Source of the DNA: a virus
Taxonomy: Duplodnaviria > Caudoviricetes
Reading direction: 5' to 3' (one strand)
IMG/VR virus record: IMGVR_UViG_3300029798_000001
DNA: 64,000 bases
Part shown: one piece after another, positions 5,061-63,300 of the stretch
Layout: every line of letters starts with the position of its first letter
Position numbering within the stretch: the stretch's first letter is position 1
Made by a program: the position numbers and the translations under genes
The notes under the pieces: model-generated
Seen by the model: the letters and a program-made list of their open reading frames with translations, nothing else
The model's database searches: none
Told to the model about the DNA's origin: nothing

Positions 5061-5556
5061 TACTATCACTGGCGGCAACATTGTCAACGGCAACGGCAAC
5101 GGTGTAGGAAATATTGGCAGCTCCACTACATATTTTAACACAGTATTTGCCAAAGCAACAAGCGCACAATACGCTGACTTGGCAGAAATGTACTGTGGAG
5201 ACAAATTATATTCACCCGGTACCGTGGTTGATTTTGGCGGCACAAATGAAATCACAACCACAGCCAAAAGCCATAGCACTCGGGTTGCTGGTATTATTTC
5301 TACCAATCCAAGTTATCTAATGAACAGTGCCCTTGATTGTACTACTGCACTCGAAGTTGCCTTGGTTGGTCGTGTGCCATGCTCGGTAGTCGGTACAATT
5401 CACAAAGGTGATCGACTGGTATCAAGCGATCTTCCTGGAGTTGCTCAAGCATTAAATATGAGTCAATATCAACCTGGTTGCATCATTGGTAAATCTTTAG
5501 AAGATTATAATTCAGCAGAACCCGGTGTGATAGAGGTGGCCGTAGGCCGAGTATAA
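1..5556 (+). CDS. Long repetitive tail fibre-like protein, 5'-truncated by the window edge; C-terminal intramolecular-chaperone / peptidase G2-like domain
   Basis: Frame is open from position 1. G/T/S/A/V-rich repeats; fibre-type motifs (PVGNSTQRP..GMVRFNT, NGVVQIP..Y.VSGTTLTF); C-terminus AQYADLAE..PGTVV..VALVGRVPC..KGDRLV..IIGKSLE. Confidence 0.8.
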   Translation, partial: VTGTATAASTVGGVITGSSSSVTGTQTAASTVGGVMTGTSLSTTGTVTGGNLATGGTASATGTVTGGNLATGGTASATGTVTGGNLATGGTISATGNATVGNVSATNHTGTNVSVTGTATAASTVGGVITGTSTSVTGAVSGASASVSGGVTAASVTGGVITGSSASVTGGVTAASVAGGVITGTSTSVTGTQTAASTVGGVITGSSSSVTGTQTAASTVGGVITGSSASVTGAVQGASASVSGGVTAASVAGGVITGTSTSVTGGVTAASVAGGVITGSSASVTGAVSGASASVSGGVIAASVAGGVITGTSTSVTGTQTAASTVGGVITGSSASVTGAVQGASASVSGGVTAASVAGGVITGTSASVTGGVTAASVAGGVITGSSASVSGNVTGGNISTGGIISSTGTATVGNLIVSNNANILGNLNVQGNVTFINSNVITVNDLYIELANNQTTYANINGAGLNVGLQGSPLTNWTYGTVANAWTTNVGISATSTVTGGNLATGGTVSATGNVTGGNVLTGGIISSTGNITTAGYFVGAFAGSISGNVTAAGANTQIQYNSSGNLAGSSAFTFTQTTNALSVGGTITAGNLATGGTISSTGNITGGNISATNHTGTTVSVTGTVTAASTVGGVITGSSTSVTGTQTAASTVGGVITGTSTSVTGGVTAASVAGGVITGTSASVSGGVTAASVAGGVITGTSTSVTGTQTAASTVGGVITGSSASVTGAVSGASASVSGGVTAASIAGGVITGTSSSVTGTQTAASTVGGVITGSSTSVTGAVSGASASVSGGVTAASVTGGVITGTSTSVSGGVTAASVAGGVITGTSTSVTGTQTAASTVGGVITGSSTSVTGAISGASSSVTGAQTAASTVGGVITGSSASVTGAVSGASASVSGAVTAASTVGGIITGTSVSVTGTQTAASTVGGVITGSSASVTGALSGASASVSGAVTAASVVGGVITGTSTSVTGAQTAASTVGGIITGTSTSVTGNTTAGNILTGGLISATGNITGNYILGNGSLLTGLSTSSISNGTSNVSVFNNGNVTISVAGTSNVGLFTTAGVNITGVVSATGNITGGNVSATNYTGTNVSVTGIVTAASTVGGVITGSSASVTGAVTAASVVGGVITGTSTSVTGTQTAASTVGGVITGSSASVTGAITGASLTISGNANIASNTFFVNSTTNTASFGTATQTTNALVAFNSSTSILVPVGNSTQRPGTGVTGMVRFNTTNNTLEVYNNSAWANVGQQTFTVIADDQFAGTGSQTIFTLSSSQTTNSCIVSINGVVQIPTTAYSVSGTTLTFTEAPAVGDLIDVRELTTTTSVTSITNSSGNASIYVNDLSSNVSVTGNIVASGNIYANALIIITTESIVGNVIGGNLLTSGTVSATGNITGNYFFGNGSQLTGVTATGIGTLASLSVTGNTTTGNLLTGGLVSAAGTITGTSHLGTSVSVTGAVTAASVVGGVITGSSTSVTGTQTAASTVGGVITGTSTSVTGNTTSGNILTGGLISATGNITGGNIISTGTSGNITGANVISATTFSATGNTTSGNLLTSGLISATSTITGTSHLGAVVSVTGAVTAASVVGGVITGTSTSVSGGVTAASVSGGVITGSSTSVTGTQTAASTVGGVITGSSISVSGAVTGASVVGGVITGTSTSVTGSQTAASTVGGVITGSSLSVTTGTITGGNIVNGNGNGVGNIGSSTTYFNTVFAKATSAQYADLAEMYCGDKLYSPGTVVDFGGTNEITTTAKSHSTRVAGIISTNPSYLMNSALDCTTALEVALVGRVPCSVVGTIHKGDRLVSSDLPGVAQALNMSQYQPGCIIGKSLEDYNSAEPGVIEVAVGRV

Positions 5557-10180: not shown

Positions 10181-10432
10181 ATGGATACTCTCTTTCAACG
10201 CTTAGATTCTGCTGAAAAACACATAGCACAGGTCAAAAACAAAGTGGCCCGTCGAGATTTGCTTAAAATGGTTAGAGCAATAGATCAAGCCATTGTGGCC
10301 GCCGATATGGAAAGTGTAGAATGTCGCAGAATGCACCGAGAATCCATACGCTACCGAGAACTTGTGAAAACAGTAGATAGTTTACTAACCAATTTAGAAC
10401 AACATATTACCTTTGCAAACCTGCTCGGTTGA
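10181..10432 (+). CDS. Hypothetical protein
   Basis: 83-aa ORF directly behind a consensus promoter. Confidence 0.7.
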   Translation: MDTLFQRLDSAEKHIAQVKNKVARRDLLKMVRAIDQAIVAADMESVECRRMHRESIRYRELVKTVDSLLTNLEQHITFANLLG

Positions 10433-10457
10433 CCTAACACAATATTTAATATATAAT
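10429..10457 (+). promoter_or_regulatory. Sigma70-type promoter
   Basis: TTGACC-N17-TATAAT; ATG at 10465. Confidence 0.85.
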
Positions 10458-13294: not shown

Positions 13295-13816
13295 ATGGAC
13301 TTAATGATCGACCTGGAAGGCCTGGGAACAGGACCTGATACTACTATTTTAACTATTGCCGCACAGGCTTTTGATCCGTTTGGCTCCGGCTATTACGATC
13401 AACAATACTATGCCCGCATTACCTTAGAAAGCCAACCCAATCGTAGCATACAACAAGATACTATCGATTGGTGGGCTACTCAGCCTGCGGCCGCCCGTGA
13501 TGAGGCATTTATGGAAGAAGGTCGCATTGATTTAGATCAAGCATTAGATAGTCTAGGCAAATTAATTTGGCATGCTAAACGAATCTGGGCACAAGGTCCA
13601 ACTTATGACATGAACATTCTGGAAGACGCCTACAAAAGTTATAATAAACCCCTTCCGTGGCAGTTCTATGCTGTTCGTGATAGTCGCACTGTGTTCAGCT
13701 TATGGCCAGAACTACCGAAGCCTCCTACTACACACCATGCTCTTGAAGACTGCCGCAGACAAATAGACATGCTACAACAAACTCTTCGACAATTAAATGT
13801 AAAGGCTCTGGCGTAA
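13295..13816 (+). CDS. DEDDh 3'-5' exonuclease / exoribonuclease (DexA / RNase AS-like)
   Basis: LMIDLEGLG, WAQGPTYD, RDSRT, HHALEDC motifs. Confidence 0.85.
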   Translation: MDLMIDLEGLGTGPDTTILTIAAQAFDPFGSGYYDQQYYARITLESQPNRSIQQDTIDWWATQPAAARDEAFMEEGRIDLDQALDSLGKLIWHAKRIWAQGPTYDMNILEDAYKSYNKPLPWQFYAVRDSRTVFSLWPELPKPPTTHHALEDCRRQIDMLQQTLRQLNVKALA

Positions 13817-14919
13817 TGTCTAATAATACTTTTATTTGTAAAGCACCTTGGACTAGCATTGCTTTTCAACCTACCGGTGTAGCACCTTGTTGTATTTTTG
13901 ATTTAGATAAGGTCGAACAGTTCACAGATCCGCAGAATTTATTTCAACAAATTAAAACAGATTTTAAAAGTGGTAAAATACCATCAGGGTGTTCTAAATG
14001 TAATGAGAATATAACCCATGGATTACCTGGATACTATACCGGGTTTGACCAGTACACAACCGACTTTAATGAAACAATTATACAAGAAATCAATCTTAAA
14101 GCAAATAATTTTTGTAATTTGGCCTGCAGGAGCTGCGGCCCACATTTTAGTTCTAAATGGGAAGAAGAATTTAAAGGAACAATTATTATAACTAATGATG
14201 AGCAAGTTATGAGCAAGATTGGTCAGCTGGATATTTCCAAGTTAAAAACTATTATATTTGCCGGCGGTGAACCAACTATGTCCCCAGACCATGTAAAGTT
14301 ACTTAACATCCTGTTACAGAGTAATCACACAACCCCAGTAATTCGTATAGCAACAAATTTACACAATTTAACATATAAAAATATTGATTTAATTTCTCTC
14401 TGGAAACATTTTCCTAATCTTTATTTAAATGTTAGTATTGACGCTATCGAAGACCGGGCAAAATATATTAGATCTGGCACTAATTGGGAAAAAATGGTTT
14501 TAAATTTAAAAAAGTTATTAAGTTCTAATATTACTTGCGACGTAAGTTTTACTATTAGTGCATTAAACATATGGTTTATTGAAGAAACGCTTGACTATCT
14601 AAGAAAAGAGTTTGACATCGAAGTACCTAACTTTAATATATTATCATCTCCTGATATTTTAAATCTTTCGGTTATCCCTTTAGAATTTAAAGAAAAATTA
14701 AATATCATGCTCAACAGATGCTTATCCAAGGGATATCAAGTAGAAAAAATTACTCAGTATCTAAATTCATACGATACATCTTTTTTATGGCAAAGTTTTT
14801 TAATTTATAATCTCTTGTTAGATACATCTCGACAAGAACAATTTTGTCAAACCTTGCCAATTTTTGACTCTTTAATTTCAAGATGGGTCAAACAACCAGA
14901 TGTAAAGGAATTAAGATGA
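13816..14919 (+). CDS. Radical SAM enzyme with N-terminal Cys-rich (SPASM/twitch-like) region
   Basis: CNLACRSC, GGEP, VSIDA; N-terminal CKAPW..CC..CSKC. Confidence 0.85.
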   Translation: MSNNTFICKAPWTSIAFQPTGVAPCCIFDLDKVEQFTDPQNLFQQIKTDFKSGKIPSGCSKCNENITHGLPGYYTGFDQYTTDFNETIIQEINLKANNFCNLACRSCGPHFSSKWEEEFKGTIIITNDEQVMSKIGQLDISKLKTIIFAGGEPTMSPDHVKLLNILLQSNHTTPVIRIATNLHNLTYKNIDLISLWKHFPNLYLNVSIDAIEDRAKYIRSGTNWEKMVLNLKKLLSSNITCDVSFTISALNIWFIEETLDYLRKEFDIEVPNFNILSSPDILNLSVIPLEFKEKLNIMLNRCLSKGYQVEKITQYLNSYDTSFLWQSFLIYNLLLDTSRQEQFCQTLPIFDSLISRWVKQPDVKELR

Positions 14920-36408: not shown

Positions 36409-36953
36409 AAATAGCAATTACAGGACATACTCGCGGACTTGGAGCAGAATTTAAAAAAACATACGAAGCCGATGGCCACACAGTATTAGGATTTAGTCGT
36501 GGTAATGGATACGATCTAAGAGATTGGAGCATGATGCAAAAAATGTTGTCGCAAATCAACGACTGCGATATGTTTATTAGCTGTGCTAAACCTGATTTTG
36601 TACAAACAACTATTTTATATGAGTTATGGAAACAGTGGAACGGACAAAATAAAGTTATTATAAATATTAGTTCTATTTTAACATATTTGCCAACTTGTAC
36701 GCCTGATTTATTTAATGACCCGATGATGGATTTATATCGCACATCAAAATTATCGTTAAACGAAGCTAGTACGCAACTGGCGTTTAAAAGCCACCTGCCT
36801 AAAATTATGTTAATAAAACCCGGGCATTTATACAATCGGCCTATAACAACAGAGCAACAATTAAAACTATCTACATGGGTTAGTACTTTTAAATCTATAG
36901 TAGAATTAGCACAACAAAACAAGTTAATCATAAAAGAACTTACACTAGCATAA
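36405..36953 (+). CDS. Short-chain dehydrogenase/reductase-like protein
   Basis: MKIAITGHTRGLG Rossmann motif, IINISS, YRTSK (YxxxK). Confidence 0.8.
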   Translation: MKIAITGHTRGLGAEFKKTYEADGHTVLGFSRGNGYDLRDWSMMQKMLSQINDCDMFISCAKPDFVQTTILYELWKQWNGQNKVIINISSILTYLPTCTPDLFNDPMMDLYRTSKLSLNEASTQLAFKSHLPKIMLIKPGHLYNRPITTEQQLKLSTWVSTFKSIVELAQQNKLIIKELTLA

Positions 36954-38113
36954 TGACACCAAAAGAATATTTAACTAAAAAAAGTTTTTGTACTTTGCCA
37001 TGGTTGGGAGTTTATATACAGCCCGATGGAGGTGTACGAAATTGTGCTATTACAAAAACAACTATAGGTAATATAAACACACAACCATTGATTGATATAT
37101 TACACAATGATGTTAATCAAAATATTAAAAAAGATATGTTAGAGGATGTATTACATGAAAGATGTAGTCACTGCCATGGATTGGAAAAAAATCAAAAATT
37201 TAGTGTAAACTCGATTAGTAATCGAGTTTGGTATTTAAAAACATTAACTATTAAAGATTTGGATTTTTTTGACAAAACTGAAAACTATCGATTAAAAATG
37301 TTAGATCTTCGTTGGAAAAATACCTGTAACTTTGCTTGTATATATTGTGGTCCTGATTTAAGTAGCTCGTGGGCAAACGAATTAAATCTGCCACAACATA
37401 TAAACGATACTGCATTACAACAATCGTTGGATTACATTTACGATAATCTTAGCACAGTGGATCACATTTATTTGGCTGGCGGAGAGCCATTGATGATTAA
37501 AGAAAATTTAGTATTATTAACTCGAATTAAAAAAATTAATCCCGAAGTAGAAATACGAATTAACACTAATTTAAGTTTAATTAATAATGAAATTTATAAT
37601 TTGCTTAAGACATTTAAAAATGTACATTGGACAGTTAGTGTTGATGGCATTGGATCAGAATTTGAATATGTTCGATACGGCGGAGTCTGGAGTCAGTTTG
37701 TTACAAATTTACAACAATTGCAACAGGATTTTGAAAAAATTAATTTTAATTCTACTTGGTGTATTTTAACAGCCCACGGTGTTTTAGATTGTATAGATTT
37801 TTTACAAAATTTAGGATTCCATGAAAATTGTTTTATTGTAAATCCGTTGGATGATCCTAAGGTATGGCATGTAGGACATTTGCCCAATTTAGCATTATCA
37901 AAACTTAGTGATAGAATTAAGAGCAAATTGACCGGGGCTAACACTAACTATTCTCTTTACAATTCGTTGACTTTAATGTTAAACTATATATCAACGCCGA
38001 TTGAAAAAAATATTAAAGCAACATTTAATGAATTAACCAAAATTGATTTAAGAAGAAAATTAGACAGCAGTAAGATTTTTACAGAATTATATAAACTTAA
38101 AGAAGGAAAATAA
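36953..38113 (+). CDS. Radical SAM enzyme with N-terminal SPASM/twitch-like region
   Basis: CNFACIYC, AGGEP, INTNL, VSVDG; N-terminal FCTLPW..PDG.VRNC..RCSHC. Confidence 0.88.
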   Translation: MTPKEYLTKKSFCTLPWLGVYIQPDGGVRNCAITKTTIGNINTQPLIDILHNDVNQNIKKDMLEDVLHERCSHCHGLEKNQKFSVNSISNRVWYLKTLTIKDLDFFDKTENYRLKMLDLRWKNTCNFACIYCGPDLSSSWANELNLPQHINDTALQQSLDYIYDNLSTVDHIYLAGGEPLMIKENLVLLTRIKKINPEVEIRINTNLSLINNEIYNLLKTFKNVHWTVSVDGIGSEFEYVRYGGVWSQFVTNLQQLQQDFEKINFNSTWCILTAHGVLDCIDFLQNLGFHENCFIVNPLDDPKVWHVGHLPNLALSKLSDRIKSKLTGANTNYSLYNSLTLMLNYISTPIEKNIKATFNELTKIDLRRKLDSSKIFTELYKLKEGK

Positions 38114-39433: not shown

Positions 39434-40591
39434 ATGAGTTTTCCATCTGATGACTTTTACTGTAATCAAAAATTTAATTGGTTGTCAGTTGATCTTGAAA
39501 AAAGATTAACATATTCTTGTTGTGCTGCCGTTCCTGCTAAAATTGATGTATTGTGGCTTAACAAAAACCCTGGAAAACTTTTTAATACGCCTCAGCTAAT
39601 ACACGAGCGGCAGTTGATGCTTAATAATATTCCCGTCGCCAGTTGTAAAACTGCTTGTTGGGATCCGGAGCAACAGGGTCTAGTAAGTCGCCGTGCCCTA
39701 TGGAAAAGCAATATTAAAACACACAGTAATTTAGAGTCGCACCCGACAACATTAAACATTATTTTAGGATCTAACTGTAATTTAACTTGTTCGTATTGCG
39801 ATAAACAATATAGCACCTCGTGGTTGCAGGATATTAATAATGTCGGGCCATATCTCGATATTCCTAAATTTAAATTAACGCCAGTGGATCAGCTAATATT
39901 AAATATTAGTCAAAAAGAACATCAAGACTCACCCGGGTTTAACACATTAATTAATGAAATTGAATCATTTGATAATATAGATCAAATAATTATTACTGGC
40001 GGCGAGCCATTTTTATTTAATAATCTGCCCTCATTATTAAATAAGTTGCACACCGCCGCAAAGATTAGGGTATATACAGGTCTGGGCGTTAATACTACAC
40101 GGCTAAAAACCCAGCTTGACAAAATTAATAAAGTTGAAAATTTAACTATAGTTGTTAGTGCAGAGAATATTGGTAAATTTTATGAATTCAACAGATATGG
40201 AAATAGTTACGATAATTTTTGTAAAAATCTTAACTTGCTACGAGAGTACAAAGTTAATCTTAAGTTTAGCGCAGTAGTAAGTAATTTAACTATTTTTGGA
40301 TTAGTTGATTTTGTAGAGCAGTACGGTGACGAAAATATAATTTATCAGTTATGCAACGATCCAACATATCTAAAAGTTAATGTCCTAGATTTAACAAGTG
40401 TGGATAAGTTAATTCCTGCAATCAAATCAAGCAACATTTTAATTAAAGATGCGATTATACAAAATTTAAAAATCTCAAGCACAAAAGAACAACAGCAACA
40501 CTGTTCAATTTTTCTGAAAGAATTTGCTCGTAGGCGTAATTTAAATCTTGACATTTTCCCTCACAGTATGTTACAATGGTTAAATCTATAA
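39434..40591 (+). CDS. Radical SAM enzyme with N-terminal Cys-rich region
   Basis: CNLTCSYC, TGGEP, YTGL, VSAE; N-terminal YCNQKF..SCC..SCKTAC. Confidence 0.85.
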   Translation: MSFPSDDFYCNQKFNWLSVDLEKRLTYSCCAAVPAKIDVLWLNKNPGKLFNTPQLIHERQLMLNNIPVASCKTACWDPEQQGLVSRRALWKSNIKTHSNLESHPTTLNIILGSNCNLTCSYCDKQYSTSWLQDINNVGPYLDIPKFKLTPVDQLILNISQKEHQDSPGFNTLINEIESFDNIDQIIITGGEPFLFNNLPSLLNKLHTAAKIRVYTGLGVNTTRLKTQLDKINKVENLTIVVSAENIGKFYEFNRYGNSYDNFCKNLNLLREYKVNLKFSAVVSNLTIFGLVDFVEQYGDENIIYQLCNDPTYLKVNVLDLTSVDKLIPAIKSSNILIKDAIIQNLKISSTKEQQQHCSIFLKEFARRRNLNLDIFPHSMLQWLNL

Positions 40592-42588: not shown

Positions 42589-42617
42589 TTGACCAGAAAT
42601 TGCCAATATAGTATAAT
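42589..42617 (+). promoter_or_regulatory. Sigma70-type promoter
   Basis: TTGACC-N17-TATAAT. Confidence 0.85.
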
Positions 42618-42647
42618 AGTTGTATAGTTAATAAAAAGGAGCTAACC

Positions 42648-45826: not shown

Positions 45827-46327
45827 ATGAAGATATTGACCTTAGACAACACCCCCTTTGATCTTGATCATTTACCAGAAGAAGTAGATGATATGCGGTT
45901 TGCTATTTTTGACAATAGCGATCCTAAGGACCCAGACTATCATTATATTCCATTAATCTTTTTAGAAAGTTTTACAGCACCTGCTTTGGTACTACGCATT
46001 GGTGAACACCGAATTAAGATGCCAGTGGACTGGCAAATCTTAATTGGAGAACCAGACTTAGGCGACTTAGAAGTATTACCATTAACCAGTATCAACGATC
46101 GCGGGTTTAAAGCATTTCAATTTAATCCGTTAAGCAGTTTTCGTCCTAGTTTCCTTGACGTAGAAATTATTGACGTGTATCAAGAAGTAACATGGTATGC
46201 TCCTAAACTTAAAAACGGACAGATGTTATGTGTACCTGTAAGCGAAGGTGAAAAACCCGACTGTGTTTATTTTGTTAAAGACATTAGTCGCAACTGCGAA
46301 GTGGTAAATTACAATCAGGCCTGGTAG
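45827..46327 (+). CDS. Hypothetical protein
   Basis: 166-aa ORF behind a promoter. Confidence 0.75.
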   Translation: MKILTLDNTPFDLDHLPEEVDDMRFAIFDNSDPKDPDYHYIPLIFLESFTAPALVLRIGEHRIKMPVDWQILIGEPDLGDLEVLPLTSINDRGFKAFQFNPLSSFRPSFLDVEIIDVYQEVTWYAPKLKNGQMLCVPVSEGEKPDCVYFVKDISRNCEVVNYNQAW

Positions 46328-51866: not shown

Positions 51867-52829
51867 ATGATTGATGTGGTTTCCTTTTTACCAGGCAAGA
51901 GAAAACAGACCAGTTCGGGCTGGGTTTCAGTAAATGCACCGTGTTGTGTACATCGTGGTGAATCCGCTGATCGTCGTATGCGTGGGGGTATAAAATCCTC
52001 CCCCGACGGTAGTTTCAGTTGGCATTGTTTCAATTGTGGTTATACTGCTAGTTTTGTTCTTGGGCGGAACCTAACATTCAAGGCTCGTAAACTATTAGAG
52101 TGGATAAATGTACCACAAGAAGAAATTGAGCGTATAAATCTTGAAAGTTTAAAACACAAATCAATTGAAGGATTAATTCAAGAGCGTCAAGTAGTAGCTG
52201 ATCGAATACAAGGTATAGAATTTGAAGAAAGAGATTTGCCAGCAGATACGCACCCACTTAATGAAGCAGGAACAAACTATCTTCAAAAGCGTTGCATACC
52301 GTTGGACTATCCGTTCTTGTTTAAGACTATGCCACGCAATGGTATTGTAATTCCGTTTACATATGATAATCAAATTGTTGGACATACTACTAGATTCTTA
52401 GATGATCGCACACCTAGATATATTCAAGACATACAACCGGGTTATGTATTTGGCACCGACCTACAAAAATTAAATTGGCAATATGTAGTAGTTATGGAAG
52501 GTGTATTTGATGCACTTAGCATTAACGGGTTGGCAGTGTTACACGCAGAGATCAATGATGCACAAGTTAAATTAATACGCAGTCTAGGAAAAGAAATTAT
52601 TGTAGTCCCAGATCAAGACGAAGCTGGTATGAAACTAGTAGACCGGGCGGTGGAACTAGGGTGGGCGGTAAGTATGCCCGAGTGGCCCGCAGAGGTCAAA
52701 GATGTAAACGATGCGGTAATTCGTTGGGGTAGACTAGCAACTTTGCTAACTATAATGCAGGCTCGAGAAACTAGTAAAATTAAAATAGAACTAAGGAAGA
52801 AACAACTTGTTAAAAGATTACGGACTTGA
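51867..52829 (+). CDS. DNA primase (Zn finger + TOPRIM)
   Basis: NAPCC..WHCFNCG, VMEGVFDALS, VPDQDEAG, KDVND. Confidence 0.85.
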   Translation: MIDVVSFLPGKRKQTSSGWVSVNAPCCVHRGESADRRMRGGIKSSPDGSFSWHCFNCGYTASFVLGRNLTFKARKLLEWINVPQEEIERINLESLKHKSIEGLIQERQVVADRIQGIEFEERDLPADTHPLNEAGTNYLQKRCIPLDYPFLFKTMPRNGIVIPFTYDNQIVGHTTRFLDDRTPRYIQDIQPGYVFGTDLQKLNWQYVVVMEGVFDALSINGLAVLHAEINDAQVKLIRSLGKEIIVVPDQDEAGMKLVDRAVELGWAVSMPEWPAEVKDVNDAVIRWGRLATLLTIMQARETSKIKIELRKKQLVKRLRT

Positions 52830-54213
52830 TGTCCAACGCTTATTCTTAGAAATGATGTTGCAGGACGCAGAAAGTTATGTTCGCGTTCAAAACATTTACA
52901 ATCCAGAAAACTTTGACCGCAGTCTTAGACCCGCTGCTGAGTTTATTGCCAAGCATAGCGATGAACATAAAACATTACCCGCACCAGAACAGATTACAGC
53001 CGCAACTGGCATTAAACTTAATCATATTCCAGATTTAAATGAAGGACACTTTGAGTGGTTCATGGACGAGTTTGAGGCATTTACAAAAAAACAAGAACTA
53101 GAGCGAGCAATTTTGAAAAGTGCAGATCTACTCGAGACTGGTAACGAATTTGGGCAGATTGAAAAACTAATCAAAGATGCTGTTCAAATTAGTTTGACCA
53201 AGGACATGGGCACAGACTATTTTGCCGATCCGCGGTTTCGTATTGACAAATATTTTAATTCAGGTGGCCAGGTAAGCACAGGATGGCCACAAATGGATAA
53301 GATCTTGTATGGCGGATTTAGTCGAGGTGAGCTTAACATTTTTGCTGGCGGATCTGGGTCGGGTAAGAGTCTTGTTATGATGAACATTGCATTGGGTTGG
53401 TTGCAAGCCGGGCTAAGTGGTGTGTATATCAGTTTAGAACTTAGTGAAGAACTATGTGCGTTAAGAACCGATGCAATGTTATCTGGTATGAGCACAAAAG
53501 AAATTCGTCGAGATATTGATCAAACTGAACTTAAAGTTAAGTTGGTATCTAAGAAAGCTGGACAATATCGTATTAAGGCATTACCGGCACAGAGTAACAT
53601 TAACGATATCCGCAGTTACATCAAAGAAGTACAAGTGCAGACAGGATTGAAAGTGGATTTTGTCATGTGTGATTACTTGGATTTGTTAATGCCAGTTAGT
53701 GCTAAAGTCAGCCCAAATGATTTATTTGTTAAAGACAAGTATGTGTCGGAAGAACTGCGTAACTTGGCCAAAGAACTTAATGTATTGTTTGTGACAGCAA
53801 GTCAGTTAAATCGTAGTGCGGTAGAAGAAATTGAGTTTGATCATAGCCATATTAGTGGTGGTATCAGTAAGATTAATACAGCGGATAATGTGTTTGGCAT
53901 CTTTACAAGTCGTGCTATGCGTGAGCGTGGAAAATATCAAATTCAATGTATGAAAAGTCGAAGTAGTACAGGTGTTGGTATGAAGATCGATTTGGACTAT
54001 AATGTTGAAACTATGCGTATTACAGATCCAGGAGAAGACGAGCAATCTAATTTTAAACGCCCAGGCGGAAATTTGTTAGATTCAATTAAGGCAAAAAGCA
54101 CAATGATTAATGGAACCGAACCGGCCGCAGAACACGAAGAATCAGGAAAAATTACTGCCGATGTGCAAAGCGCCAAACTAAAACAGCTATTAGGGCAAAT
54201 TAAAGCCAACTAA
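52807..54213 (+). CDS. Replicative helicase, DnaB / gp41-like
   Basis: GGSGSGKS, SLELSE, DYLDL, TASQLNR, KINTAD, MKSR. Confidence 0.92.
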   Translation: MLKDYGLDVQRLFLEMMLQDAESYVRVQNIYNPENFDRSLRPAAEFIAKHSDEHKTLPAPEQITAATGIKLNHIPDLNEGHFEWFMDEFEAFTKKQELERAILKSADLLETGNEFGQIEKLIKDAVQISLTKDMGTDYFADPRFRIDKYFNSGGQVSTGWPQMDKILYGGFSRGELNIFAGGSGSGKSLVMMNIALGWLQAGLSGVYISLELSEELCALRTDAMLSGMSTKEIRRDIDQTELKVKLVSKKAGQYRIKALPAQSNINDIRSYIKEVQVQTGLKVDFVMCDYLDLLMPVSAKVSPNDLFVKDKYVSEELRNLAKELNVLFVTASQLNRSAVEEIEFDHSHISGGISKINTADNVFGIFTSRAMRERGKYQIQCMKSRSSTGVGMKIDLDYNVETMRITDPGEDEQSNFKRPGGNLLDSIKAKSTMINGTEPAAEHEESGKITADVQSAKLKQLLGQIKAN

Positions 54214-54267
54214 TATTATAACATTTTAGTGCCTAATCGCACTAAATAATAAAAAGGTTCTGGCCCA

Positions 54268-54516
54268 ATGCAAAAGAAAACTCGTAGTTTATTAGAAGAA
54301 TTAGACTCAATGTATATTGAGCGCGATCAGCGCCATATTATTGAAAACCGCGCCGCCAATATTATAGCCAGTGCTATACGCTTGCTAGAGCAGATCGACG
54401 AAAATTACAGCACCGACGATGCCCAGAATTTACAGCGTAAATTACTAAACGCCATTAATCATCGCGATCCCGGTAAGTTTACACGCACGGTAAGGAAAAC
54501 TGATGCAAATTCATGA
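54268..54516 (+). CDS. Hypothetical protein
   Basis: CTAAATA at 54242-54248. Confidence 0.7.
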   Translation: MQKKTRSLLEELDSMYIERDQRHIIENRAANIIASAIRLLEQIDENYSTDDAQNLQRKLLNAINHRDPGKFTRTVRKTDANS

Positions 54517-55321
54517 AATAACTCTCAGAGAAGCAGAGTGGGAGCCGCTTGATCCTAAAAAGATTATGGCCACAGCTAGACCAACAAAATTTAACTATGG
54601 GACACCACCTATAGCACCGAGAGTTGGTACCGAACTACCAACTGATCCCGCTACATCTAAAGAAAAACAAGATGACCTAGCAACCAAACAAGCTCAATAC
54701 CAGCAACAATCGGCAGATGCGGTAAACGCTATGAAAACAAAATCAACACCACAAGTAGGCCAATCTCTCCCACAAGTAAAACAACCCACCCCGTCTAACG
54801 GAGCAGGCGCATTTGGGCAAATGGCTCAGCAGTTGCAGAAACCTGCTACTCCTTCGGGACCAACACAGTCTAGCACTCAAGGAACAATTACCCCAACTGC
54901 AACAGGAGTAGTACATACTGCTAGTGAACGAAATCCTAATCCACGCACAGAACCCATAGGTGCTCAGCAAAAGTGGGACATTGAATTTAGAAAATTACAA
55001 AACCAATATCCAGGCCGTACCCCTCAACAATATCAACAAGCAATGTTACAAAGAGTAGGAACAGCTCGTCCTAATGGCACACCTGCATCACAAGCTGCAC
55101 CCGCACCGCAGGTCGTTGCAACAGCACAGCCCGGGACTACTATAAAATCTGCTCCTCGTCCAGTGCAACCAGCACCTGCCGCAACAACACAATTCCCACC
55201 GATTACACTGGGTACTGGGTCCAAAGCACAAGTATATGTTAATAAAGGTAGAGGCTATATTGATAGCAAAACAGGCAAACCGATGCCCCCGAGTATTATT
55301 CAGGCCATGGGTATAAAATGA
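54503..55321 (+). CDS. P/Q/T-rich hypothetical protein with CTS-like N-terminus
   Basis: MQIHEITLRE; low-complexity body. Confidence 0.7.
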   Translation: MQIHEITLREAEWEPLDPKKIMATARPTKFNYGTPPIAPRVGTELPTDPATSKEKQDDLATKQAQYQQQSADAVNAMKTKSTPQVGQSLPQVKQPTPSNGAGAFGQMAQQLQKPATPSGPTQSSTQGTITPTATGVVHTASERNPNPRTEPIGAQQKWDIEFRKLQNQYPGRTPQQYQQAMLQRVGTARPNGTPASQAAPAPQVVATAQPGTTIKSAPRPVQPAPAATTQFPPITLGTGSKAQVYVNKGRGYIDSKTGKPMPPSIIQAMGIK

Positions 55322-57243
55322 AAATCTTTGAAGGCGGTAATGTATTTAAGAACAGCGACGGCCAAGCCTTAACACAGCGCATTAATCAAATTGATGTCAA
55401 ACCCACTCTCGCCTGGCTTGAAGAAATGCTTCCTGGGTTAGATTTACAGAACAACACACTTGGATCAACTGGAATTAAAGATACCAGCGGTGATTTAGAT
55501 ATTGCGGTAGATGCTAATCGAGTTAGTAAAGAACAATTAGAATATAGACTTAAATCCTGGGCAGTTGCTAACAAATTTAAACCCGAAGACTATGTTCGTA
55601 AGTCCGGCAGTGCCGTACATTTTAAAACTCCTATAGACGGCCGCCCAGATCGTGGCTATGTGCAAACAGATTTTATGTTTATGAAAGATGTTCCGTGGTC
55701 AAAGTTTGTACTAGGTGCAATGCCAGTGGACAGCAAATATAAAGGTCGCGAGCGCAATGTATTAATGAATAGTATCGCTAAAAGTTTAGGATACAAACTA
55801 AATCAAAATGCTGGTATTGCCGATCGTGCCAAAGACACATTAATTTCCAATGATCCAGATGCAGTGGCTAAACTGTTATTGAACAAAACGGCCACAAGAC
55901 AAGACTTAGCAAGTGTAGAATCGATATTACAGGCACTTAGCACCGATCCTAAGCGCGATGCAAAATTAGCCGACTTTAAACAACACATGGAACGCGAAGG
56001 CCTACCGTTTATGGAAAGCACAGATTCCGATACTTATATAGAATATAGTGATGTAAACTTCCTTGCCCGTCTCCGCGATCGCATTGTCAATCAAGGCATG
56101 CAGGTTATTGTAGAAGCCGAAGTACAAGGCGGACGAGCCAAAGGCATTGAACACTTAGAAGATTATGTATTCCGTAATGGTAGTGCCGGTATCAAGAAGG
56201 CATTAGATATTGTAAAACATACTTCCGCTGATACAGGAAAAACCACTACAGTTAAATGGGATGGTAAGCCAGCATTAGTCTTTGGCCGAGATGCCAATGG
56301 TACATTTATATTAACTGATGTATCTGGGTTTACTGCCAAAGGTTACAATGGATTGTTTACCAGCCCTAACCAAGTTACACGACATTTAGCCGCAAGAGAT
56401 GCCGATGCAGCGGCACAAGGTAAGGCTGCCACCCGGGTTCAAGATCTTTCTCCTATATATAATAAGTTATGGGATATGTTAGATGCTGCTGTTCCTCCTA
56501 ACTACCGTGGGTTTGTTCAAGGCGATCTATTATACATGAATACACCGCCGCTGGAATCTGGAAATTATGTGTTTACACCCAATGCTATAGAATATAAAAT
56601 CCCAGCTAATAGCGATATAGGACAGCGTATAGGTGCTAGTGAGGTTGGCATTGCTATGCACACAAAATATGCAGAACCAGGAGCACCAAAAGAACCACTT
56701 GGCAATGTTCAGTTTAAACGGGTACCTGGATTACTATTATTAGAACCTGTGTATGCTAAAGAAAATGTTAAACCAGAAACACAGCTGGTTAAGCAACTAC
56801 AAGGTCTTTATAGATCTCAAGGTGCAGCTATTGATCAACTATTCAATCCCAACGATCTTCGTGCATTACAAATTACTGATTTACCTAAATTATGTGTGGA
56901 TTATATTAATAGTCGAGTAGGCACCGGATTTGATAATTTGTTAGCACAATTTGGGCCGTGGTTACAACAACGAGTTACTCCTAAGAAATTTAAAAATATT
57001 GTAGAATATCTACAAAGTCCCCGTAGTAATTTAGCAGGAATGGCCGCAGCATTTACTGCTTGGGAGCTGTTACATGATATTAAAATGGATATTTTAGGAC
57101 AATTAGACCTACAACATCCAGGGCAAGAAGGCTGGGTAATGGCCACTCCTGGCGGTATGGCCAAGGCTGTTAACCGGTTAGCTGGCGGATTTACTGCAGC
57201 AAATCGTCAAATAAACAACCCAGAACCGGTAGCTAACTCCTAA
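55318..57243 (+). CDS. Fusion: Pol-beta-type nucleotidyltransferase + ATP-dependent ligase-like (KxDG) domain
   Basis: LGSTG..SGDLDIAVD; TVKWDG, VQGDLLY, QEGWV, MAKAV. Confidence 0.65.
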   Translation: MKIFEGGNVFKNSDGQALTQRINQIDVKPTLAWLEEMLPGLDLQNNTLGSTGIKDTSGDLDIAVDANRVSKEQLEYRLKSWAVANKFKPEDYVRKSGSAVHFKTPIDGRPDRGYVQTDFMFMKDVPWSKFVLGAMPVDSKYKGRERNVLMNSIAKSLGYKLNQNAGIADRAKDTLISNDPDAVAKLLLNKTATRQDLASVESILQALSTDPKRDAKLADFKQHMEREGLPFMESTDSDTYIEYSDVNFLARLRDRIVNQGMQVIVEAEVQGGRAKGIEHLEDYVFRNGSAGIKKALDIVKHTSADTGKTTTVKWDGKPALVFGRDANGTFILTDVSGFTAKGYNGLFTSPNQVTRHLAARDADAAAQGKAATRVQDLSPIYNKLWDMLDAAVPPNYRGFVQGDLLYMNTPPLESGNYVFTPNAIEYKIPANSDIGQRIGASEVGIAMHTKYAEPGAPKEPLGNVQFKRVPGLLLLEPVYAKENVKPETQLVKQLQGLYRSQGAAIDQLFNPNDLRALQITDLPKLCVDYINSRVGTGFDNLLAQFGPWLQQRVTPKKFKNIVEYLQSPRSNLAGMAAAFTAWELLHDIKMDILGQLDLQHPGQEGWVMATPGGMAKAVNRLAGGFTAANRQINNPEPVANS

Positions 57244-57257
57244 TTTTTACCAAACGG

Positions 57258-57265
57258 TATAAATA
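57258..57265 (+). promoter_or_regulatory. T4-type late promoter
   Basis: TATAAATA, then AAGGAG before the next gene. Confidence 0.8.
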
Positions 57266-58768: not shown

Positions 58769-59271
58769 AATCAGACCAAGAATTCGACCGTATGTTTCGC
58801 CAGGAATTTAAGGATATAACTCCTAATTTACTCTGGCAAAATGATGCAGGCGAATACGAAGTATTTGGAAAATATCGCATTATTCCTCAACGCCCCGGAT
58901 ATCAAGTATTTTGTTCAGCTACAGAAGTTGGGAATTTTCATAGTACCAAATCAGCACTAAGTTGGTGTATAGCTGATAAGTTTAACGCATATAATACAGC
59001 TCGTGATATACTAGTATTAGACAATAAATTAGGTGCAATTACCTCCGATATTGTTGTTAGAACAGCGATCGCCGAGCGTAGTACAAAATGGGAATTTAGA
59101 GACAGTATCGGAACCAAGTTAGAAACTAAAATTATCCGTAAAAAACAAGTGGAAAACGAATTGACCAAATGTGTAAACTGGGCTAAATATATTCAATACA
59201 AAGGATTCAATAATGAAACTGCTAGAACTAGCCGCAATACACCCAACAAAGCAGGCCGCCAAGGTCTTTGA
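58765..59271 (+). CDS. Hypothetical protein
   Basis: 168-aa ORF in the operon. Confidence 0.7.
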   Translation: MKSDQEFDRMFRQEFKDITPNLLWQNDAGEYEVFGKYRIIPQRPGYQVFCSATEVGNFHSTKSALSWCIADKFNAYNTARDILVLDNKLGAITSDIVVRTAIAERSTKWEFRDSIGTKLETKIIRKKQVENELTKCVNWAKYIQYKGFNNETARTSRNTPNKAGRQGL

Positions 59272-60127
59272 AAGTTATTTTGGTGGTCGTGTCAAACTTG
59301 ACACTATTACTTCTAAACAAGCTCGCGGCCTATTAAATCGTGTACGCACATTAGTCAAAGAACATCGTCGCACTCCAGAATTTCACCACAGCGAACAAAA
59401 CGCCTCGTATCTTAAATTGATCATGATGGAACAAGTTTTAGCCGCCAAGATCAGAGAAGATGCAACTGTAGCAATTGGGCAACCTGCCGGCGCCACAGCT
59501 AACCAGACAACTTCTACTACACCAGTAGATCCAGTAAAGCAAAAACAAGAAATGCAACAAAAAATTAATTCTACTCAAGATCCGGCACTCAAAGCAGCAT
59601 TAACTAAGAGTGCAGCCGGGCAGTCGCTTAGTCCCGCAGAACAACTATTGGTAACCGGCGCTGCTGTAGCTACCCAAAATGAAAGTCGTAGAAGCCGCCA
59701 ACGCAGATTGCGTGAAGCAAGCGAAGTTCAACAAGCTCAAGTAGTATTAGCCAGTCAAGACATGGTTGATCAAGTTCAAAAAATGAGCGAGCAAGTTAGT
59801 GCTATGCAGTTTAAAGATTTGCCAGCCTTGGTAGATCAAATTAAAAACGAAGTCGGCGGTGAACAAGCTACTCAGTTCAATGGCGATGCAAGTGCTGCAT
59901 TAAGTGGTCTCCTACAAAACTTACAAGGCGCTAAACAGCAATTAGAAGCCGCACTTGGTGTAGTTACTGGACAAGCACCACAAGTTCCAGGCGAAGACAT
60001 GGGCGGAGAATTACCACCAGCCGAAGAAATGCCAGCTGAATTACCAGCACCAGAAGGTGATATCGATGCTGAAATGGATGCTAACCTTGGCGTACCGAAA
60101 GCCTCGTTAGGTCGTGGCCGCAGATAA
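59213..60127 (+). CDS. Hypothetical head-associated protein
   Basis: MKLLEL start; LRE|AS-type sites; acidic tail. Confidence 0.7.
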   Translation: MKLLELAAIHPTKQAAKVFESYFGGRVKLDTITSKQARGLLNRVRTLVKEHRRTPEFHHSEQNASYLKLIMMEQVLAAKIREDATVAIGQPAGATANQTTSTTPVDPVKQKQEMQQKINSTQDPALKAALTKSAAGQSLSPAEQLLVTGAAVATQNESRRSRQRRLREASEVQQAQVVLASQDMVDQVQKMSEQVSAMQFKDLPALVDQIKNEVGGEQATQFNGDASAALSGLLQNLQGAKQQLEAALGVVTGQAPQVPGEDMGGELPPAEEMPAELPAPEGDIDAEMDANLGVPKASLGRGRR

Positions 60128-60496: not shown

Positions 60497-61375
60497 ATGG
60501 ACGACCGCATCACAATCAACAAACTTGAATTTTATATTACTAATGTATGTAATTTAACCTGCTCTAACTGTAACAGATATAATAACTATAAATTTGCTGG
60601 TTGGCAAAATTATGATGATTATGCTGAAATTATTCAACGGTGGTCTAAAAAAATCAATGTAGTTAAAGCAATGATCCTAGGCGGCGAGCCGCTGCTTAAT
60701 CCCAGTATTAACAAATGGATCGAGGGTATTCGCACCACATGGCCCGATGGATACTCGCCAGAAATTATTACCAATGGTACTCGTCTTGATTTAGTTGACG
60801 GACTATACGATACTTGCCGTAAACATGGTTCCTGGGTAGCAGTAAGCGTACATCGAGACGCTGATATTGCACCTCTTACTGCTCGAATTAGAAATTTTTT
60901 AACACCACCAATACAAGAAGGTCCAGCCCTGCTGTCAAACACAAATTCAGATTATCAATTCATCGATTCCAACTTTGTTCAGGTTCATATATGGAAAAAT
61001 TTTGATTTTCTACAAAATAATATCATTGAGCGACCAGATGGTACTCGCACACTATGGAAAAGTGATCCGGCGGTAGCACATGCTATTTGCCCCCAAGTTC
61101 TGCATAAAAATTATCATTTTATCAATGGTAAAATTTATAAATGCGGACCGGCACCATTGATGGCCGAATTCGATCAACAATATCCGTTCGATATTTCAGA
61201 CGAAGATCGAGACATAATCCATACAGATCCCGGATTGAGTATTGACGAGTTTGATGAGCATGGCGAAGAATTTTTCAAAAACATCGATAATCCAATTGCG
61301 CATTGTAAATTTTGCCCAGACACATTTGGATGGCATCCAATTGAATTTAGCAATATTAAGCCAAATAAAATTTGA
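60497..61375 (+). CDS. Radical SAM enzyme
   Basis: CNLTCSNC, LGGEP, ITNG; C-terminal CPQ..YKCG..CKFC. Confidence 0.88.
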   Translation: MDDRITINKLEFYITNVCNLTCSNCNRYNNYKFAGWQNYDDYAEIIQRWSKKINVVKAMILGGEPLLNPSINKWIEGIRTTWPDGYSPEIITNGTRLDLVDGLYDTCRKHGSWVAVSVHRDADIAPLTARIRNFLTPPIQEGPALLSNTNSDYQFIDSNFVQVHIWKNFDFLQNNIIERPDGTRTLWKSDPAVAHAICPQVLHKNYHFINGKIYKCGPAPLMAEFDQQYPFDISDEDRDIIHTDPGLSIDEFDEHGEEFFKNIDNPIAHCKFCPDTFGWHPIEFSNIKPNKI

Positions 61376-61905: not shown

Positions 61906-63300
61906 ATGGCATATTCAGATGCGGTGCTGAAACATTATGAAAATCCGTCTAATGTAGGCAGAATGGACCCGGCTGACGCTGATGTAGGCACAGGACTTGT
62001 GGGAGCTCCGGCATGCGGAGATGTTTTGCGGTTACAAATCAAAGTTGAAGATGGAATTATCACAGATGCAAAATTTAAGACATACGGCTGTTTGACCAGT
62101 AATGCTCCTGTTAATACTCCGACCTGTATTAAAAAAATAAAAGATTTAAAAATTGGTGATACGGTGCTGGCATGGAATGGTGAACTTATTGTCAATCAAA
62201 AAATTCGTGATATAATTAAACATTCAGTTGATATAAAAGATTTGTTGATAATTACTTTTCAGAGAGAAACAAGTAGAAACAATATTAACCCAGGTACTTT
62301 TTCTATTATTTGTACCAAAGAACATATATTCTGGAACGCTGATAATAAACCAATAGAAGCACAGCAATTACAGGCAGGCCAAGAATTGTACGAGATAACT
62401 GAGAATGAATTACGGATCCTTACCAATAATCGTCACCGAACAGAACTTAAACAAAAAAATAGTATAAGAATGAAAAAGTGGAATAAAGAATTTGATCACT
62501 CTTTATTACCTCAAAATCAACCTGGGTATGTGTGTAAAGATTTAAAAACTAAAAAGCAACGAGCAAGTACCGCTTCGATTAAAAACTGGCAAGATCCTGA
62601 TTATATTAAAAAATGGCAACAAGGAATGTCGCAACGAGACTGGTCTAAACCCACCAGCATTGAAAAAAAATATATTGATTTATTTGAAAAAAATAATGTA
62701 GCGGCAAGATGGAGTGCTGGCAAAATATGGATCCAGACAGACGTAGGACCAGCAAGTCCAGATTTTATTGTTCCTGGTAAGAAAAAATGTATAGAAGTTT
62801 ATACAAAGAAAATGCCAAAATTTATGCAAGATAGATCTGAAGAATCTAATTATGTACAAACTCGTAAAGAACAACTTGCAACAGCAGGATATGATTCATT
62901 ATTTTTGGCAATAGAAGATATTGCACACTCATTGCCAGAAGTACAAAATTTTATACATAATGGCATGAAAATTGTTGATATCTCGCCGATCTCTCATCTT
63001 AACCAGTTGCGTGGATGTGAGCGTGATGGTAATTTGGTTGTGGTATACGATTTAAAATTAGATGAAGGTGCTCATGTATATTTTACAAACAGAGTCGGCT
63101 CGCATAATTGTGGGTCGGCGATCGCAAGTAGTTCGCTCGTCACGGAGTGGGTCAAGGGTAAAACGCTGGAGCAAGCTGGCGCAATTAAGAATGCTGAAAT
63201 TGCAGAGGAACTCGCGCTCCCGCCGGTTAAGATTCATTGTAGTATCCTTGCGGAAGACGCTATTAAGGCCGCGATAGCGGACTACCAAAGTAAACACTAA
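61906..63300 (+). CDS. iscU: Fe-S cluster scaffold IscU, intein-containing (124-aa extein)
   Basis: HYENP.NVG, GAPACGD, KFKTYG|..|CGSAIASSSLVTEW, PVKIHCSILAEDA. Confidence 0.95.
   Translation: MAYSDAVLKHYENPSNVGRMDPADADVGTGLVGAPACGDVLRLQIKVEDGIITDAKFKTYGCLTSNAPVNTPTCIKKIKDLKIGDTVLAWNGELIVNQKIRDIIKHSVDIKDLLIITFQRETSRNNINPGTFSIICTKEHIFWNADNKPIEAQQLQAGQELYEITENELRILTNNRHRTELKQKNSIRMKKWNKEFDHSLLPQNQPGYVCKDLKTKKQRASTASIKNWQDPDYIKKWQQGMSQRDWSKPTSIEKKYIDLFEKNNVAARWSAGKIWIQTDVGPASPDFIVPGKKKCIEVYTKKMPKFMQDRSEESNYVQTRKEQLATAGYDSLFLAIEDIAHSLPEVQNFIHNGMKIVDISPISHLNQLRGCERDGNLVVVYDLKLDEGAHVYFTNRVGSHNCGSAIASSSLVTEWVKGKTLEQAGAIKNAEIAEELALPPVKIHCSILAEDAIKAAIADYQSKH
62089..63108 (+). mobile_element. 340-aa intein with a Vsr/DUF559-like endonuclease domain
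   Basis: CLTSNAPV start, CTKEHIF block B, VVYDL..HVYF..GSHN end, +1 Cys; internal PTSIE..PDFIVP..CIEV. Confidence 0.9.

Follow-up and report, generated by a model that had tools for sequence, protein, structure and literature searches.

The 64,000-nt stretch of DNA analysed here (the window, to the whole of which all positions refer) is taken from the virus record IMGVR_UViG_3300029798_000001 (Duplodnaviria; Caudoviricetes). It is part of the genome of a large, uncultured T4-like myovirus and carries genes for a tail sheath, a tail tube, a large terminase, a gp32-type single-stranded DNA-binding protein, UvsX, a UvsW-like helicase and radical-SAM proteins; no tRNA genes were found in its 64 kb. 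Located after the primase and gp41-type helicase genes is an open reading frame, P0001, whose product joins a domain resembling family-X DNA polymerases (PolX) to a domain of the Pfam family DUF6267 with a ligase-type fold. We propose that this product may be a late-expressed, bifunctional "fill-and-seal" enzyme for DNA that travels in the virion, a proposal that, with its packaging part included, seems to us evenly poised between right and wrong. The folds, the conservation of catalytic residues, the linkage of the two domains and a late-promoter-like element were all computed directly, and a homologue of the N half has been found in virions by mass spectrometry (MS). The reading frame, already described in a preliminary description made from the sequence alone, is confirmed and is divided as follows.

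55318-57243, + strand: whole open reading frame P0001, 641 aa, mini-PolX, linker and DUF6267.
55318-55995, + strand: N domain, aa 1-226, family-X-polymerase-like palm and thumb.
55996-56145, + strand: flexible linker, aa 227-276, with low predicted local distance difference test (pLDDT) values where the N model ends and the C model starts.
56146-57240, + strand: C domain, aa 277-641, DUF6267, predicted covalent nucleotidyltransferase (ligase) fold.

Family matches of P0001 are limited to two, Pfam DUF6267 on the C half and phrog_455, whose function is unknown. NCBIfam returned no match, searches of the sequences of solved structures with P0001 and with both domain profiles gave chance matches only, a megablast of 12 kb of the locus against phages gave none, and DUF6267 is not mentioned in the literature searched. 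Relatives are nonetheless plentiful in metagenomes, with more than 4000 near-full-length proteins that reduce to 1426 representatives at 50% clustering; their Atlas clusters are 83-100% viral, and among 185,579 prokaryote species genomes only 10 loci were found, all on contigs of metagenome-assembled genomes. Each domain was aligned with 76 diverse relatives (25-73% identity), and the conservation counts given below are out of these 76. The motifs listed in the preliminary description all lie where it had placed them and are conserved across this set, and its division of the protein into a Pol-beta-superfamily half and a ligase-type half is borne out by profile and structure searches of each domain.

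The model of the N half, built from the 76-sequence alignment, has a pLDDT of 93. In a Foldseek search of the PDB, all 46 matches at E <= 0.001 are family-X polymerases (best E 7e-5). VIA-align, run against 48,161 chains, matches the N half to Pol beta with a Z of 10.3 (164 residues; model 11-201 against Pol beta 139-335), followed by TdT (9.7), Leishmania Pol beta (9.6), Thermus (Tth) PolX (9.6), Pol lambda (9.4), Pol X of African swine fever virus (ASFV; 8.9, over 157 of its 176 residues) and Pol mu (7.7), with the PolX matches of Z 8.9-10.3 spanning 157-173 residues. The preliminary description had instead compared this half with CCA-adding enzymes and CD-NTases, a comparison that the structure searches do not favour: TUTases, CD-NTases, OAS and CCA enzymes match at Z <= 7.4 over about 88 residues, in the palm only, and CdnG, CdnE and CdnC (Z 5.4-6.0) and CCA enzymes (Z 4.6-5.0), whose matches are mostly palm, rank below nine PolX rows. 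Because the PolX matches cover both palm and thumb and the other nucleotidyltransferases the palm alone, the N half as modelled consists, as does the minimal ASFV enzyme, of a PolX-type palm and thumb. An 8-kDa dRP-lyase domain and helix-hairpin-helix fingers have no corresponding segment in the 641 aa, and the domain starts at the palm (residue 1); as ASFV Pol X also lacks both, their absence excludes the N half from the full-length PolX type and not from the minimal type. Its signature elements are the following.

55459-55509, + strand: hG[ST]-x8-D-x-D motif GS...GDLD, aa 48-64, with the two metal-binding carboxylates D59 and D61 (G49 75/76, D59 75/76, D61 76/76).
55663-55680, + strand: QTDFMF, with the third catalytic Asp, D118 (D118 75/76, Q116 75/76).
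55735-55818, + strand: thumb segment KYKGRERN...GYKLNQNAGI, aligned to the PolX thumb (Y141 is Y or F in 76/76, G166 76/76).

Residue-level equivalence of this thumb segment to Pol beta is suggested by the model alignment, and R21, kept in 70 of the 76, would correspond to Pol beta R149 provided that the start of the alignment (model 11 to Pol beta 139) is ungapped. Synthesis by a domain of this build would be expected to be template-directed. The PolX relation is barely visible to sequence profiles, as the palm profile PF14792 matches only three of the 76 relatives, weakly (best E 0.0018), and P0001 itself not at all; a search of related genomes with PF14792 gave no match, and there the controls likewise fell below the cutoff.

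The C half matches PF19782 (DUF6267) with an E of 1.8e-29 and 103.7 bits against a gathering cutoff of 27, as do all 76 relatives, and its model has a pLDDT of 92. Ligases alone occupy its best 27 VIA-align rows, with Z 5.4-7.9 over 144-210 residues; these comprise RNA ligases (Naegleria Rnl5, or NgrRnl, 7.9; REL1 7.3; Trl1 7.0; T4 Rnl2 6.9; T4 Rnl1 6.6), many DNA ligases (5.4-6.7), AsfvLIG (6.0), the ligase domain of M. tuberculosis LigD (5.6) and the Pnkp ligase (5.4), and capping enzymes fall below these rows at Z 5.1. Foldseek matches in the PDB are weak and almost all ligases, and neighbours outside the family in the PDB, Swiss-Prot and BFVD are likewise nearly all ligases. Some outside neighbours in AFDB and BFVD bear the name "RNA ligase", and many neighbours inside the family are fusions of DUF6267 with a cytidylyltransferase, including one from S-PM2. 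Candidate nucleotidyltransferase motifs occur in order, among them a motif IV of the E-G form, which is typical of ligases rather than capping enzymes.

56146-56166, + strand: IEHLEDY, H279-x-E281-D282, in a helix ahead of motif I (H 75/76, E 76/76, D 76/76).
56254-56265, + strand: motif I, KWDG, aa 313-316, with the predicted nucleotidyl-accepting K313 (K313, D315 and G316 each 76/76).
56518-56535, + strand: motif III, QGDLLY, aa 401-406 (G402 70/76; D403 is D or E in 73/76; model strand 137-145).
56572-56595, + strand: putative motif IIIa, FTPNAIEY (F419 72/76, P421 75/76, Y426 75/76).
56779-57114, + strand: about 110 aa inserted between motifs IIIa and IV and entirely helical (helices at model residues 227-338).
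57127-57138, + strand: motif IV, EGWV, aa 604-607 (E604 and G605 76/76).
57160-57177, + strand: motif V, AKAVNR, aa 615-620 (K616 74/76, R620 73/76).

The model places motif I between two strands and pairs motifs IV and V in a hairpin; within the helical insert, K589 (57082-57084) is kept in 76 of the 76. Several observations speak against a DNA ligase. Motif V departs from the usual K-x-K, with V618 and R620 in place of its second Lys, and motif VI and the OB domain are absent, as only about 25 residues follow motif V and the model contains no OB barrel; the canonical ligase of related phages, unlike the C half, carries all six motifs. Pfam searches with the 76 members, taken to E values as high as 10, match no ligase family, and hhalign of DUF6267 against that canonical phage ligase finds no similarity (probability 0.6%). 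The Z-scores themselves are middling (<= 7.9), and the leading structural neighbours are RNA ligases, with DNA ligases within about 1.5 Z of them. We nonetheless take the C half, on its model, to have a nucleotidyltransferase fold, with support coming from the consistency of the ligase matches, and DUF6267 is best called a putative new clade of the ligase superfamily, recognisable by structure and without a sequence link to known ligases, in which the modelled helical insert stands in place of the OB domain.

The two domains are linked in several independent ways: they are fused in both orders, lie in adjacent genes, or, in one phage, pair a PolX-like gene with a different ligase-like partner. 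Among the best 150 of the 1426 representatives, 57 have the N domain before the C domain, 6 have the reverse order and the remainder have one half, although the one-half cases include some fragments. One related locus, L096, is the unfused counterpart of the window, with a helicase gene followed by genes for 80 aa, 271 aa, the N domain (251 aa) and the C domain (468 aa). The halves are separated by two genes in a second locus, L094, and the same spacing separates the PolX-like and ligase-like genes of phage PA5oct. Cyanophage S-CAM4 has only the C half and Agrobacterium jumbo phage Atu_ph07 only the N half. In Atu_ph07 the start of the PolX-like gene (L002:2998-3831) is overlapped by a gene for a 324-aa ligase-like protein (AUZ94878, L002:2034-3008) that has KLDG, EGVV and KTK motifs, a weak full-length match to PF09414 and the BFVD name RNA ligase; it is an apparent non-orthologous replacement of DUF6267. 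On comparison, a 507-aa gene upstream in S-CAM4 was rejected as a relative of the N domain, and two genes downstream in Atu_ph07 were rejected as relatives of the C domain.

A recurrent third partner is an HxGH "cytidylyltransferase-like" domain (motif G-R/S-F-x-P-x-H-x-G-H), fused ahead of the N half or behind the C half in P0138, P0143, P0150, P0161, P0164, P0165 and P0246. It is homologous to the gene directly after DUF6267 in all six cyanomyoviruses (L001:5176-5739, and the same place in L107-L111), and no such partner gene was found in the window. We take this domain to be NMNAT-like; a role in regenerating NAD+ from NMN for use by the ligase is pure speculation. Other domains fused among the relatives are HAD/NT5C, one Amidoligase_2 and one Tad3, and in no representative is either domain fused to the 82-aa protein, the 272-aa protein or other neighbours from the window. 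Such partners, together with the general ability of ligases to make dinucleoside polyphosphates, are what could be said for an action on small molecules, that is, interference with nucleotide second messengers or NAD metabolism: relatives are fused to HxGH and NT5C/HAD domains and once to Tad3, a Thoeris inhibitor. The Tad3 fusion is a single representative, though, and P0001 has no extra domains; CD-NTases and OAS match the N half at Z <= 6.0, in the palm only, whereas the PolX thumb is an element that binds the nascent base pair. Nothing points to the interference with nucleotide signalling raised in the preliminary description, and we regard an action of this kind as very improbable.

Giant, multi-domain relatives also occur (P0245, 1002 aa; P0220, 1157 aa; P0155, 1308 aa; P0139, 1144 aa), in which the partners of the PolX-like domain are the Tad3 Thoeris inhibitor with DUF5661, NT5C/HAD phosphatases and Amidoligase_2. 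These look like polyvalent phage proteins.

The two folds leave a choice of substrate, and we lean slightly towards DNA over RNA. The preliminary description had suggested repair of cleaved tRNA or other RNA, the main contending mechanism, in which the N half would extend damaged RNA 3' ends as RlaP does and the C half would reseal the cut tRNA or other RNA. The C half gives this idea its best footing, as its closest structural neighbours are the RNA ligases listed above and it lacks an OB domain, as RNA ligases do. Pairs of a Pol-beta-superfamily nucleotidyltransferase and an RNA ligase are moreover an established theme, RlaP among them (PMC12776372, PMC7824862), the HAD/NT5C phosphatase fusions recall the phosphatase of T4 Pnkp, and the lineage already has a canonical DNA ligase. 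The N half points the other way, matching DNA PolX enzymes including the thumb where TUTases, CCA enzymes and poly(A) polymerases match the palm only. The RlaP profile (PF10127) gives no match to P0001 at E up to 1 and none at the N-domain genes of the relatives or of Atu_ph07, which encodes a true RlaP elsewhere as a separate gene. The fusions examined include neither a polynucleotide kinase nor a 2H/cyclic phosphodiesterase domain, the window has no tRNA and the surrounding genes are those of DNA replication. On balance we consider RNA repair unlikely, and DNA fill-and-seal is preferred to it.

The genomic setting of DUF6267 elsewhere is also one of replication. In six cyanomyoviruses the gene order is gp41, MazG, one or more hypothetical genes, DUF6267 and the cytidylyltransferase, and in Atu_ph07 the PolX-like gene likewise follows the primase/helicase region. 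All three of the larger related contigs carry a UvdE-type UV-damage endonuclease (G001:62179-62874, G002:79192-79902, G003:15430-16134), which would create nicks that a fill-and-seal enzyme could finish. Ligases of the families PF01068 and PF01653 are absent from all six complete cyanomyovirus genomes that carry DUF6267, in line with the statement that this cyanomyovirus subgroup lacks any known DNA ligase (PMC7824862). The situation in the lineage of the window is different. Relatives at 60-80% identity (L087/L088/L089; G003, G001, G002) carry a complete PF01068 ligase of 459-473 aa, with the motifs KLDGVR, DGE, EGIMIK, WMKWK and RFPRF of an ATP-dependent enzyme, about 18 kb downstream, at a place whose equivalent is just outside the window; tblastn with this ligase found nothing inside the window. 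The lineage thus probably has two ligase-type enzymes, and a role for DUF6267 as the only ligase of this phage was rejected. That a second DNA ligase is not obviously needed where a canonical one is present tells against DNA sealing by the fusion protein. A broader proposal identifies DUF6267, as a new OB-less clade, with the DNA ligase that T4-like cyanophages have long seemed to lack. With the mini-PolX and in many cases the NMNAT-like HxGH domain, it would form a kit that is packaged in the head, separated into its parts by the prohead protease and injected for repair of the incoming genome; this broader proposal we consider doubtful.

The timing of expression is suggested by the unit in which the fusion gene lies, the third of three overlapping genes spanning 54268-57243.

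51867-52829: Toprim primase gene.
52807-54213: gp41/DnaB-type helicase gene.
54242-54248, + strand: CTAAATA, an element that resembles a late promoter and has the extended form AATAAATAATAAAAAGG in relatives; 20 nt before the first ATG of the three-gene unit.
54268-54516, + strand: first gene of the unit, 82 aa, matching phrog_11854 "virion structural protein" (E 1.2e-16); position kept in relatives.
54503-55321, + strand: gene for a 272-aa Pro/Gln/Ala/Thr-rich protein starting MQIHE, overlapping both neighbours; synteny conserved (271 aa in L096), no family match.
57258-57265, + strand: exact TATAAATA, after the stop codon of the fusion gene and before the next gene (57306).

The sequences CTAAATA and ATAAATA are forms of the T4-type late promoter, whose consensus comes from the T4 literature. 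The AATAAATAATAAAAAGG element is kept in 56 of 60 related loci while the flanking and upstream sequence diverges, and in six of six cyanophages the unit with DUF6267 opens with CTAAATA or ATAAATA, 25-31 nt upstream. Elements of the form [ACT]TAAATA end 20-24 nt before the ATG of seven genes in the window (motif starts 11621, 19810, 23074, 26938, 41827, 54242 and 59183). Besides 54268, these genes begin at 11647, 19839, 23101, 26964, 41855 and 59213, and those at 19839, 23101 and 26964 fall in the tail-tube-to-terminase region. Of the 32 plus-strand occurrences of the motif class, 13 are found 5-45 nt ahead of a start, where position alone would give 1.3. This specificity of position belongs to the relaxed form only; the exact T4 consensus TATAAATA occurs four times in the window where eight are expected and is rarer than chance. 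[ACT]TAAATA is thus likely the late-promoter class of this phage, and by analogy with T4 the CTAAATA element would act as a late promoter, so that the fusion gene would be expressed late, in agreement with the late operon of the preliminary description. The TATAAATA at 57258 opens the next late-type unit, and the fusion gene therefore closes its own. Membership of the fusion gene in the early/middle replication unit of the helicase had been considered and was rejected after the conserved late-type element was found.

The genes at 10456 and 42648 are preceded by a second type of element (window positions about 10420-10455 and 42610-42647), in which a TATAAT-like box comes after GGTTGACC; it is likely a sigma-70-type early promoter class. 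For uvsW (43816), the gene at 45827 and the primase (51867), a -10 box is present just 5-7 nt ahead of the ATG.

Whether the protein enters the virion was assessed from its cleavage-type sites and from a related phage. The cleavage consensus of the T4 prohead protease gp21 is (L/I)-x-E, and two conserved sites in the fusion protein resemble it, bearing out the MKIFEGG start and the x-x-E sites in the linker that the preliminary description had noted.

55318-55350, + strand: MKIFE|GGNVFK, I3-F4-E5 followed by the GGNVFK strand of the PolX core (E5 70/76, G6 72/76, G7 74/76).
56107-56115, + strand: I264-V265-E266, an (L/I/V)-x-E site in a disordered stretch before the C domain (P3 is L, I, V or M in 67/76, P1 is E in 69/76).

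The second site lies in a stretch with a pLDDT below 50, and stand-alone C-domain proteins have (L/I/V)-x-E at 9-46 residues from the N-terminus; the site before the C half looks as a leader or cleavage site would, and cleavage there is plausible from the sequence. At the first site, (L/I)-x-E and GGNVFK are also kept where the N domain is internal, and a reading of MKIFE as a mere N-terminal tag was therefore rejected in favour of a domain-boundary motif. Evidence from virions comes from the cultured jumbo phage PA5oct, for which 93 virion-linked gene products have been reported (PMC7318152). With hhalign its EST35_0231 matches the N half, of which it is a homologue, at 99.1% (E 1.4e-18); the annotation of EST35_0231 reads "structural protein, ESI-MS/MS", and it sits among eight such genes, which makes head packaging plausible; upstream of it lies the ligase-like EST35_0228 (hhalign 91.5%, E 8.5e-7; Foldseek E 4e-6), and PA5oct also encodes a T4-type prohead protease. 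Some results count against packaging. EST35_0228 is not flagged by MS in PA5oct virions, the PA5oct PolX-like protein has no leader, and a search of six fragmentary relatives for Peptidase_S77 (the T4-type prohead protease) gave no match, although these are 14-32% complete and so say little on the point. In addition, (L/I)xEGGN lies in the folded core, so that its conservation does not require cleavage, and (L/I)-x-E before the N half may be structural. The 82-aa protein has no BLAST similarity to the 81-aa virion protein of PA5oct in the matching position. The virion delivery proposed in the preliminary description thus gains plausibility for the polymerase-like half through its PA5oct homologue and is not matched by MS for the ligase-like half, and by analogy with PA5oct we judge the window's fusion protein about equally prone to be packaged in the head or not.

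The same observations bear on the idea that DNA is filled and sealed inside the cell only, with the enzyme maturing late replicative DNA before packaging or completing UvdE excision repair and never being packaged. The late-type promoter and the presence of UvdE in all three relatives tested fit such a role, the unflagged PA5oct ligase-like protein is what it would predict and the EGGN motif is explicable by fold alone. It accounts less well for the (L/I/V)-x-E in the disordered leader of the stand-alone C-domain proteins, for the presence of the PA5oct PolX-like protein in virions among eight MS-confirmed virion genes, and for the window's neighbouring genes that match PHROGs named virion structural protein. 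We rate a purely intracellular role as quite unlikely.

In the mechanism that we prefer, fill-and-seal with delivery, the N half would add nucleotides at the 3'-OH in a gap, and the C half would attach a nucleotide to its own K313 and close the nick left, acting as a divergent polynucleotide ligase of the ATP or possibly the NAD type. The protein would enter the prohead, a T4-type head protease would cleave it behind E5 and E266, and it would accompany the genome into the cell, where it could mend nicks and gaps on arrival; for this sequence of loading, cutting and delivery, we see the case for and the case against as roughly in balance. If it is not packaged, the enzyme could do the same job on late replicative DNA ahead of packaging. 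The activities, the substrate, the cleavage and the packaging assigned here to the fusion protein are predictions from its sequence.

Several known systems share parts of this design. ASFV Pol X (174 aa) is likewise a minimal palm-and-thumb PolX and works with a viral ligase, AsfvLIG, but the two are encoded by separate genes of a eukaryotic virus and AsfvLIG is a canonical, OB-containing ATP ligase; ASFV virions carry this repair set. Bacterial LigD is a multi-domain enzyme for healing, filling in and sealing ends, and the HAD fusions among the relatives recall its three-activity logic, although LigD has a primase-type (AEP) polymerase, an OB-bearing ligase and the partner Ku. The head-packaged enzymes and internal proteins of T4 (Alt, IPI-III) are expressed late, as predicted for the fusion protein, and have a short leader that ends in the gp21 consensus (L/I)-x-E, as the fusion protein may have; they have no sequence relation to it, and here a site also occurs at internal domain borders and the site of the N half lies in a folded core. 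The closest precedent for the fusion itself is PgVPolX of Phaeocystis globosa virus 16T, a PolX-ligase fusion that works in base excision repair (PMC5537341). PgVPolX is also the enzyme of a large DNA virus, and fills a one-nucleotide gap and seals it. It differs in keeping the 8-kDa lyase and fingers where the fusion protein has palm and thumb only, and in having a recognisable, NAD+-dependent ligase where DUF6267 has no profile likeness to ligases, a helical insert and no OB domain, and here the host of the fusion is a tailed phage. RlaP (PF10127) is similar in that a Pol-beta-superfamily nucleotidyltransferase is coupled genetically to a ligase for restoring broken polynucleotides (PMC12776372, PMC7824862), but it acts on RNA 3' ends without a PolX thumb, and its profile misses the N domain.

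Family-X polymerases among viruses are named only for ASFV and giant viruses in the literature searched (PMC8775771, PMC5537341). The type of enzyme, PolX plus ligase, is thus already known from giant viruses, and the novelty lies in the clade of the ligase, its occurrence in a phage, the packaging that may take place and a connection with the ligase "missing" from cyanophages. If our reading is correct, it would give a function to a Pfam domain of unknown function and to an unannotated domain, both very common in aquatic T4-like and jumbo phages, and a compact fusion of an OB-less ligase with a mini polymerase could serve as a useful enzyme. Were the protein packaged, phages would, as ASFV does, enter the cell together with enzymes that repair their genome, which bears on how well virions damaged by UV survive in surface waters and on how phages resist DNA-nicking or glycosylase defences. 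The reading also gives a concrete candidate for the ligase reported to be absent from cyanomyoviruses (PMC7824862).

Other genes of the window have features of their own. A 304-aa Ala/Gln/Glu-rich protein (59213-60127) matches phrog_14154 "virion structural protein" and starts M-x-[IL]-x-E like the fusion protein; this and the 272-aa protein (54503-55321), both of low complexity and with M-x-[IL]-x-E starts, may be head-core or internal proteins. Four radical-SAM proteins are encoded (13816-14919, 36953-38113, 39434-40591 and 60497-61375), with an IscU-like gene alongside (61906-63300), and this set may serve DNA or metabolite modification chemistry. A very large reading frame at 31-5556 (1841 aa), open at the window start, has its sole match, phrog_22593, at the C-terminus.

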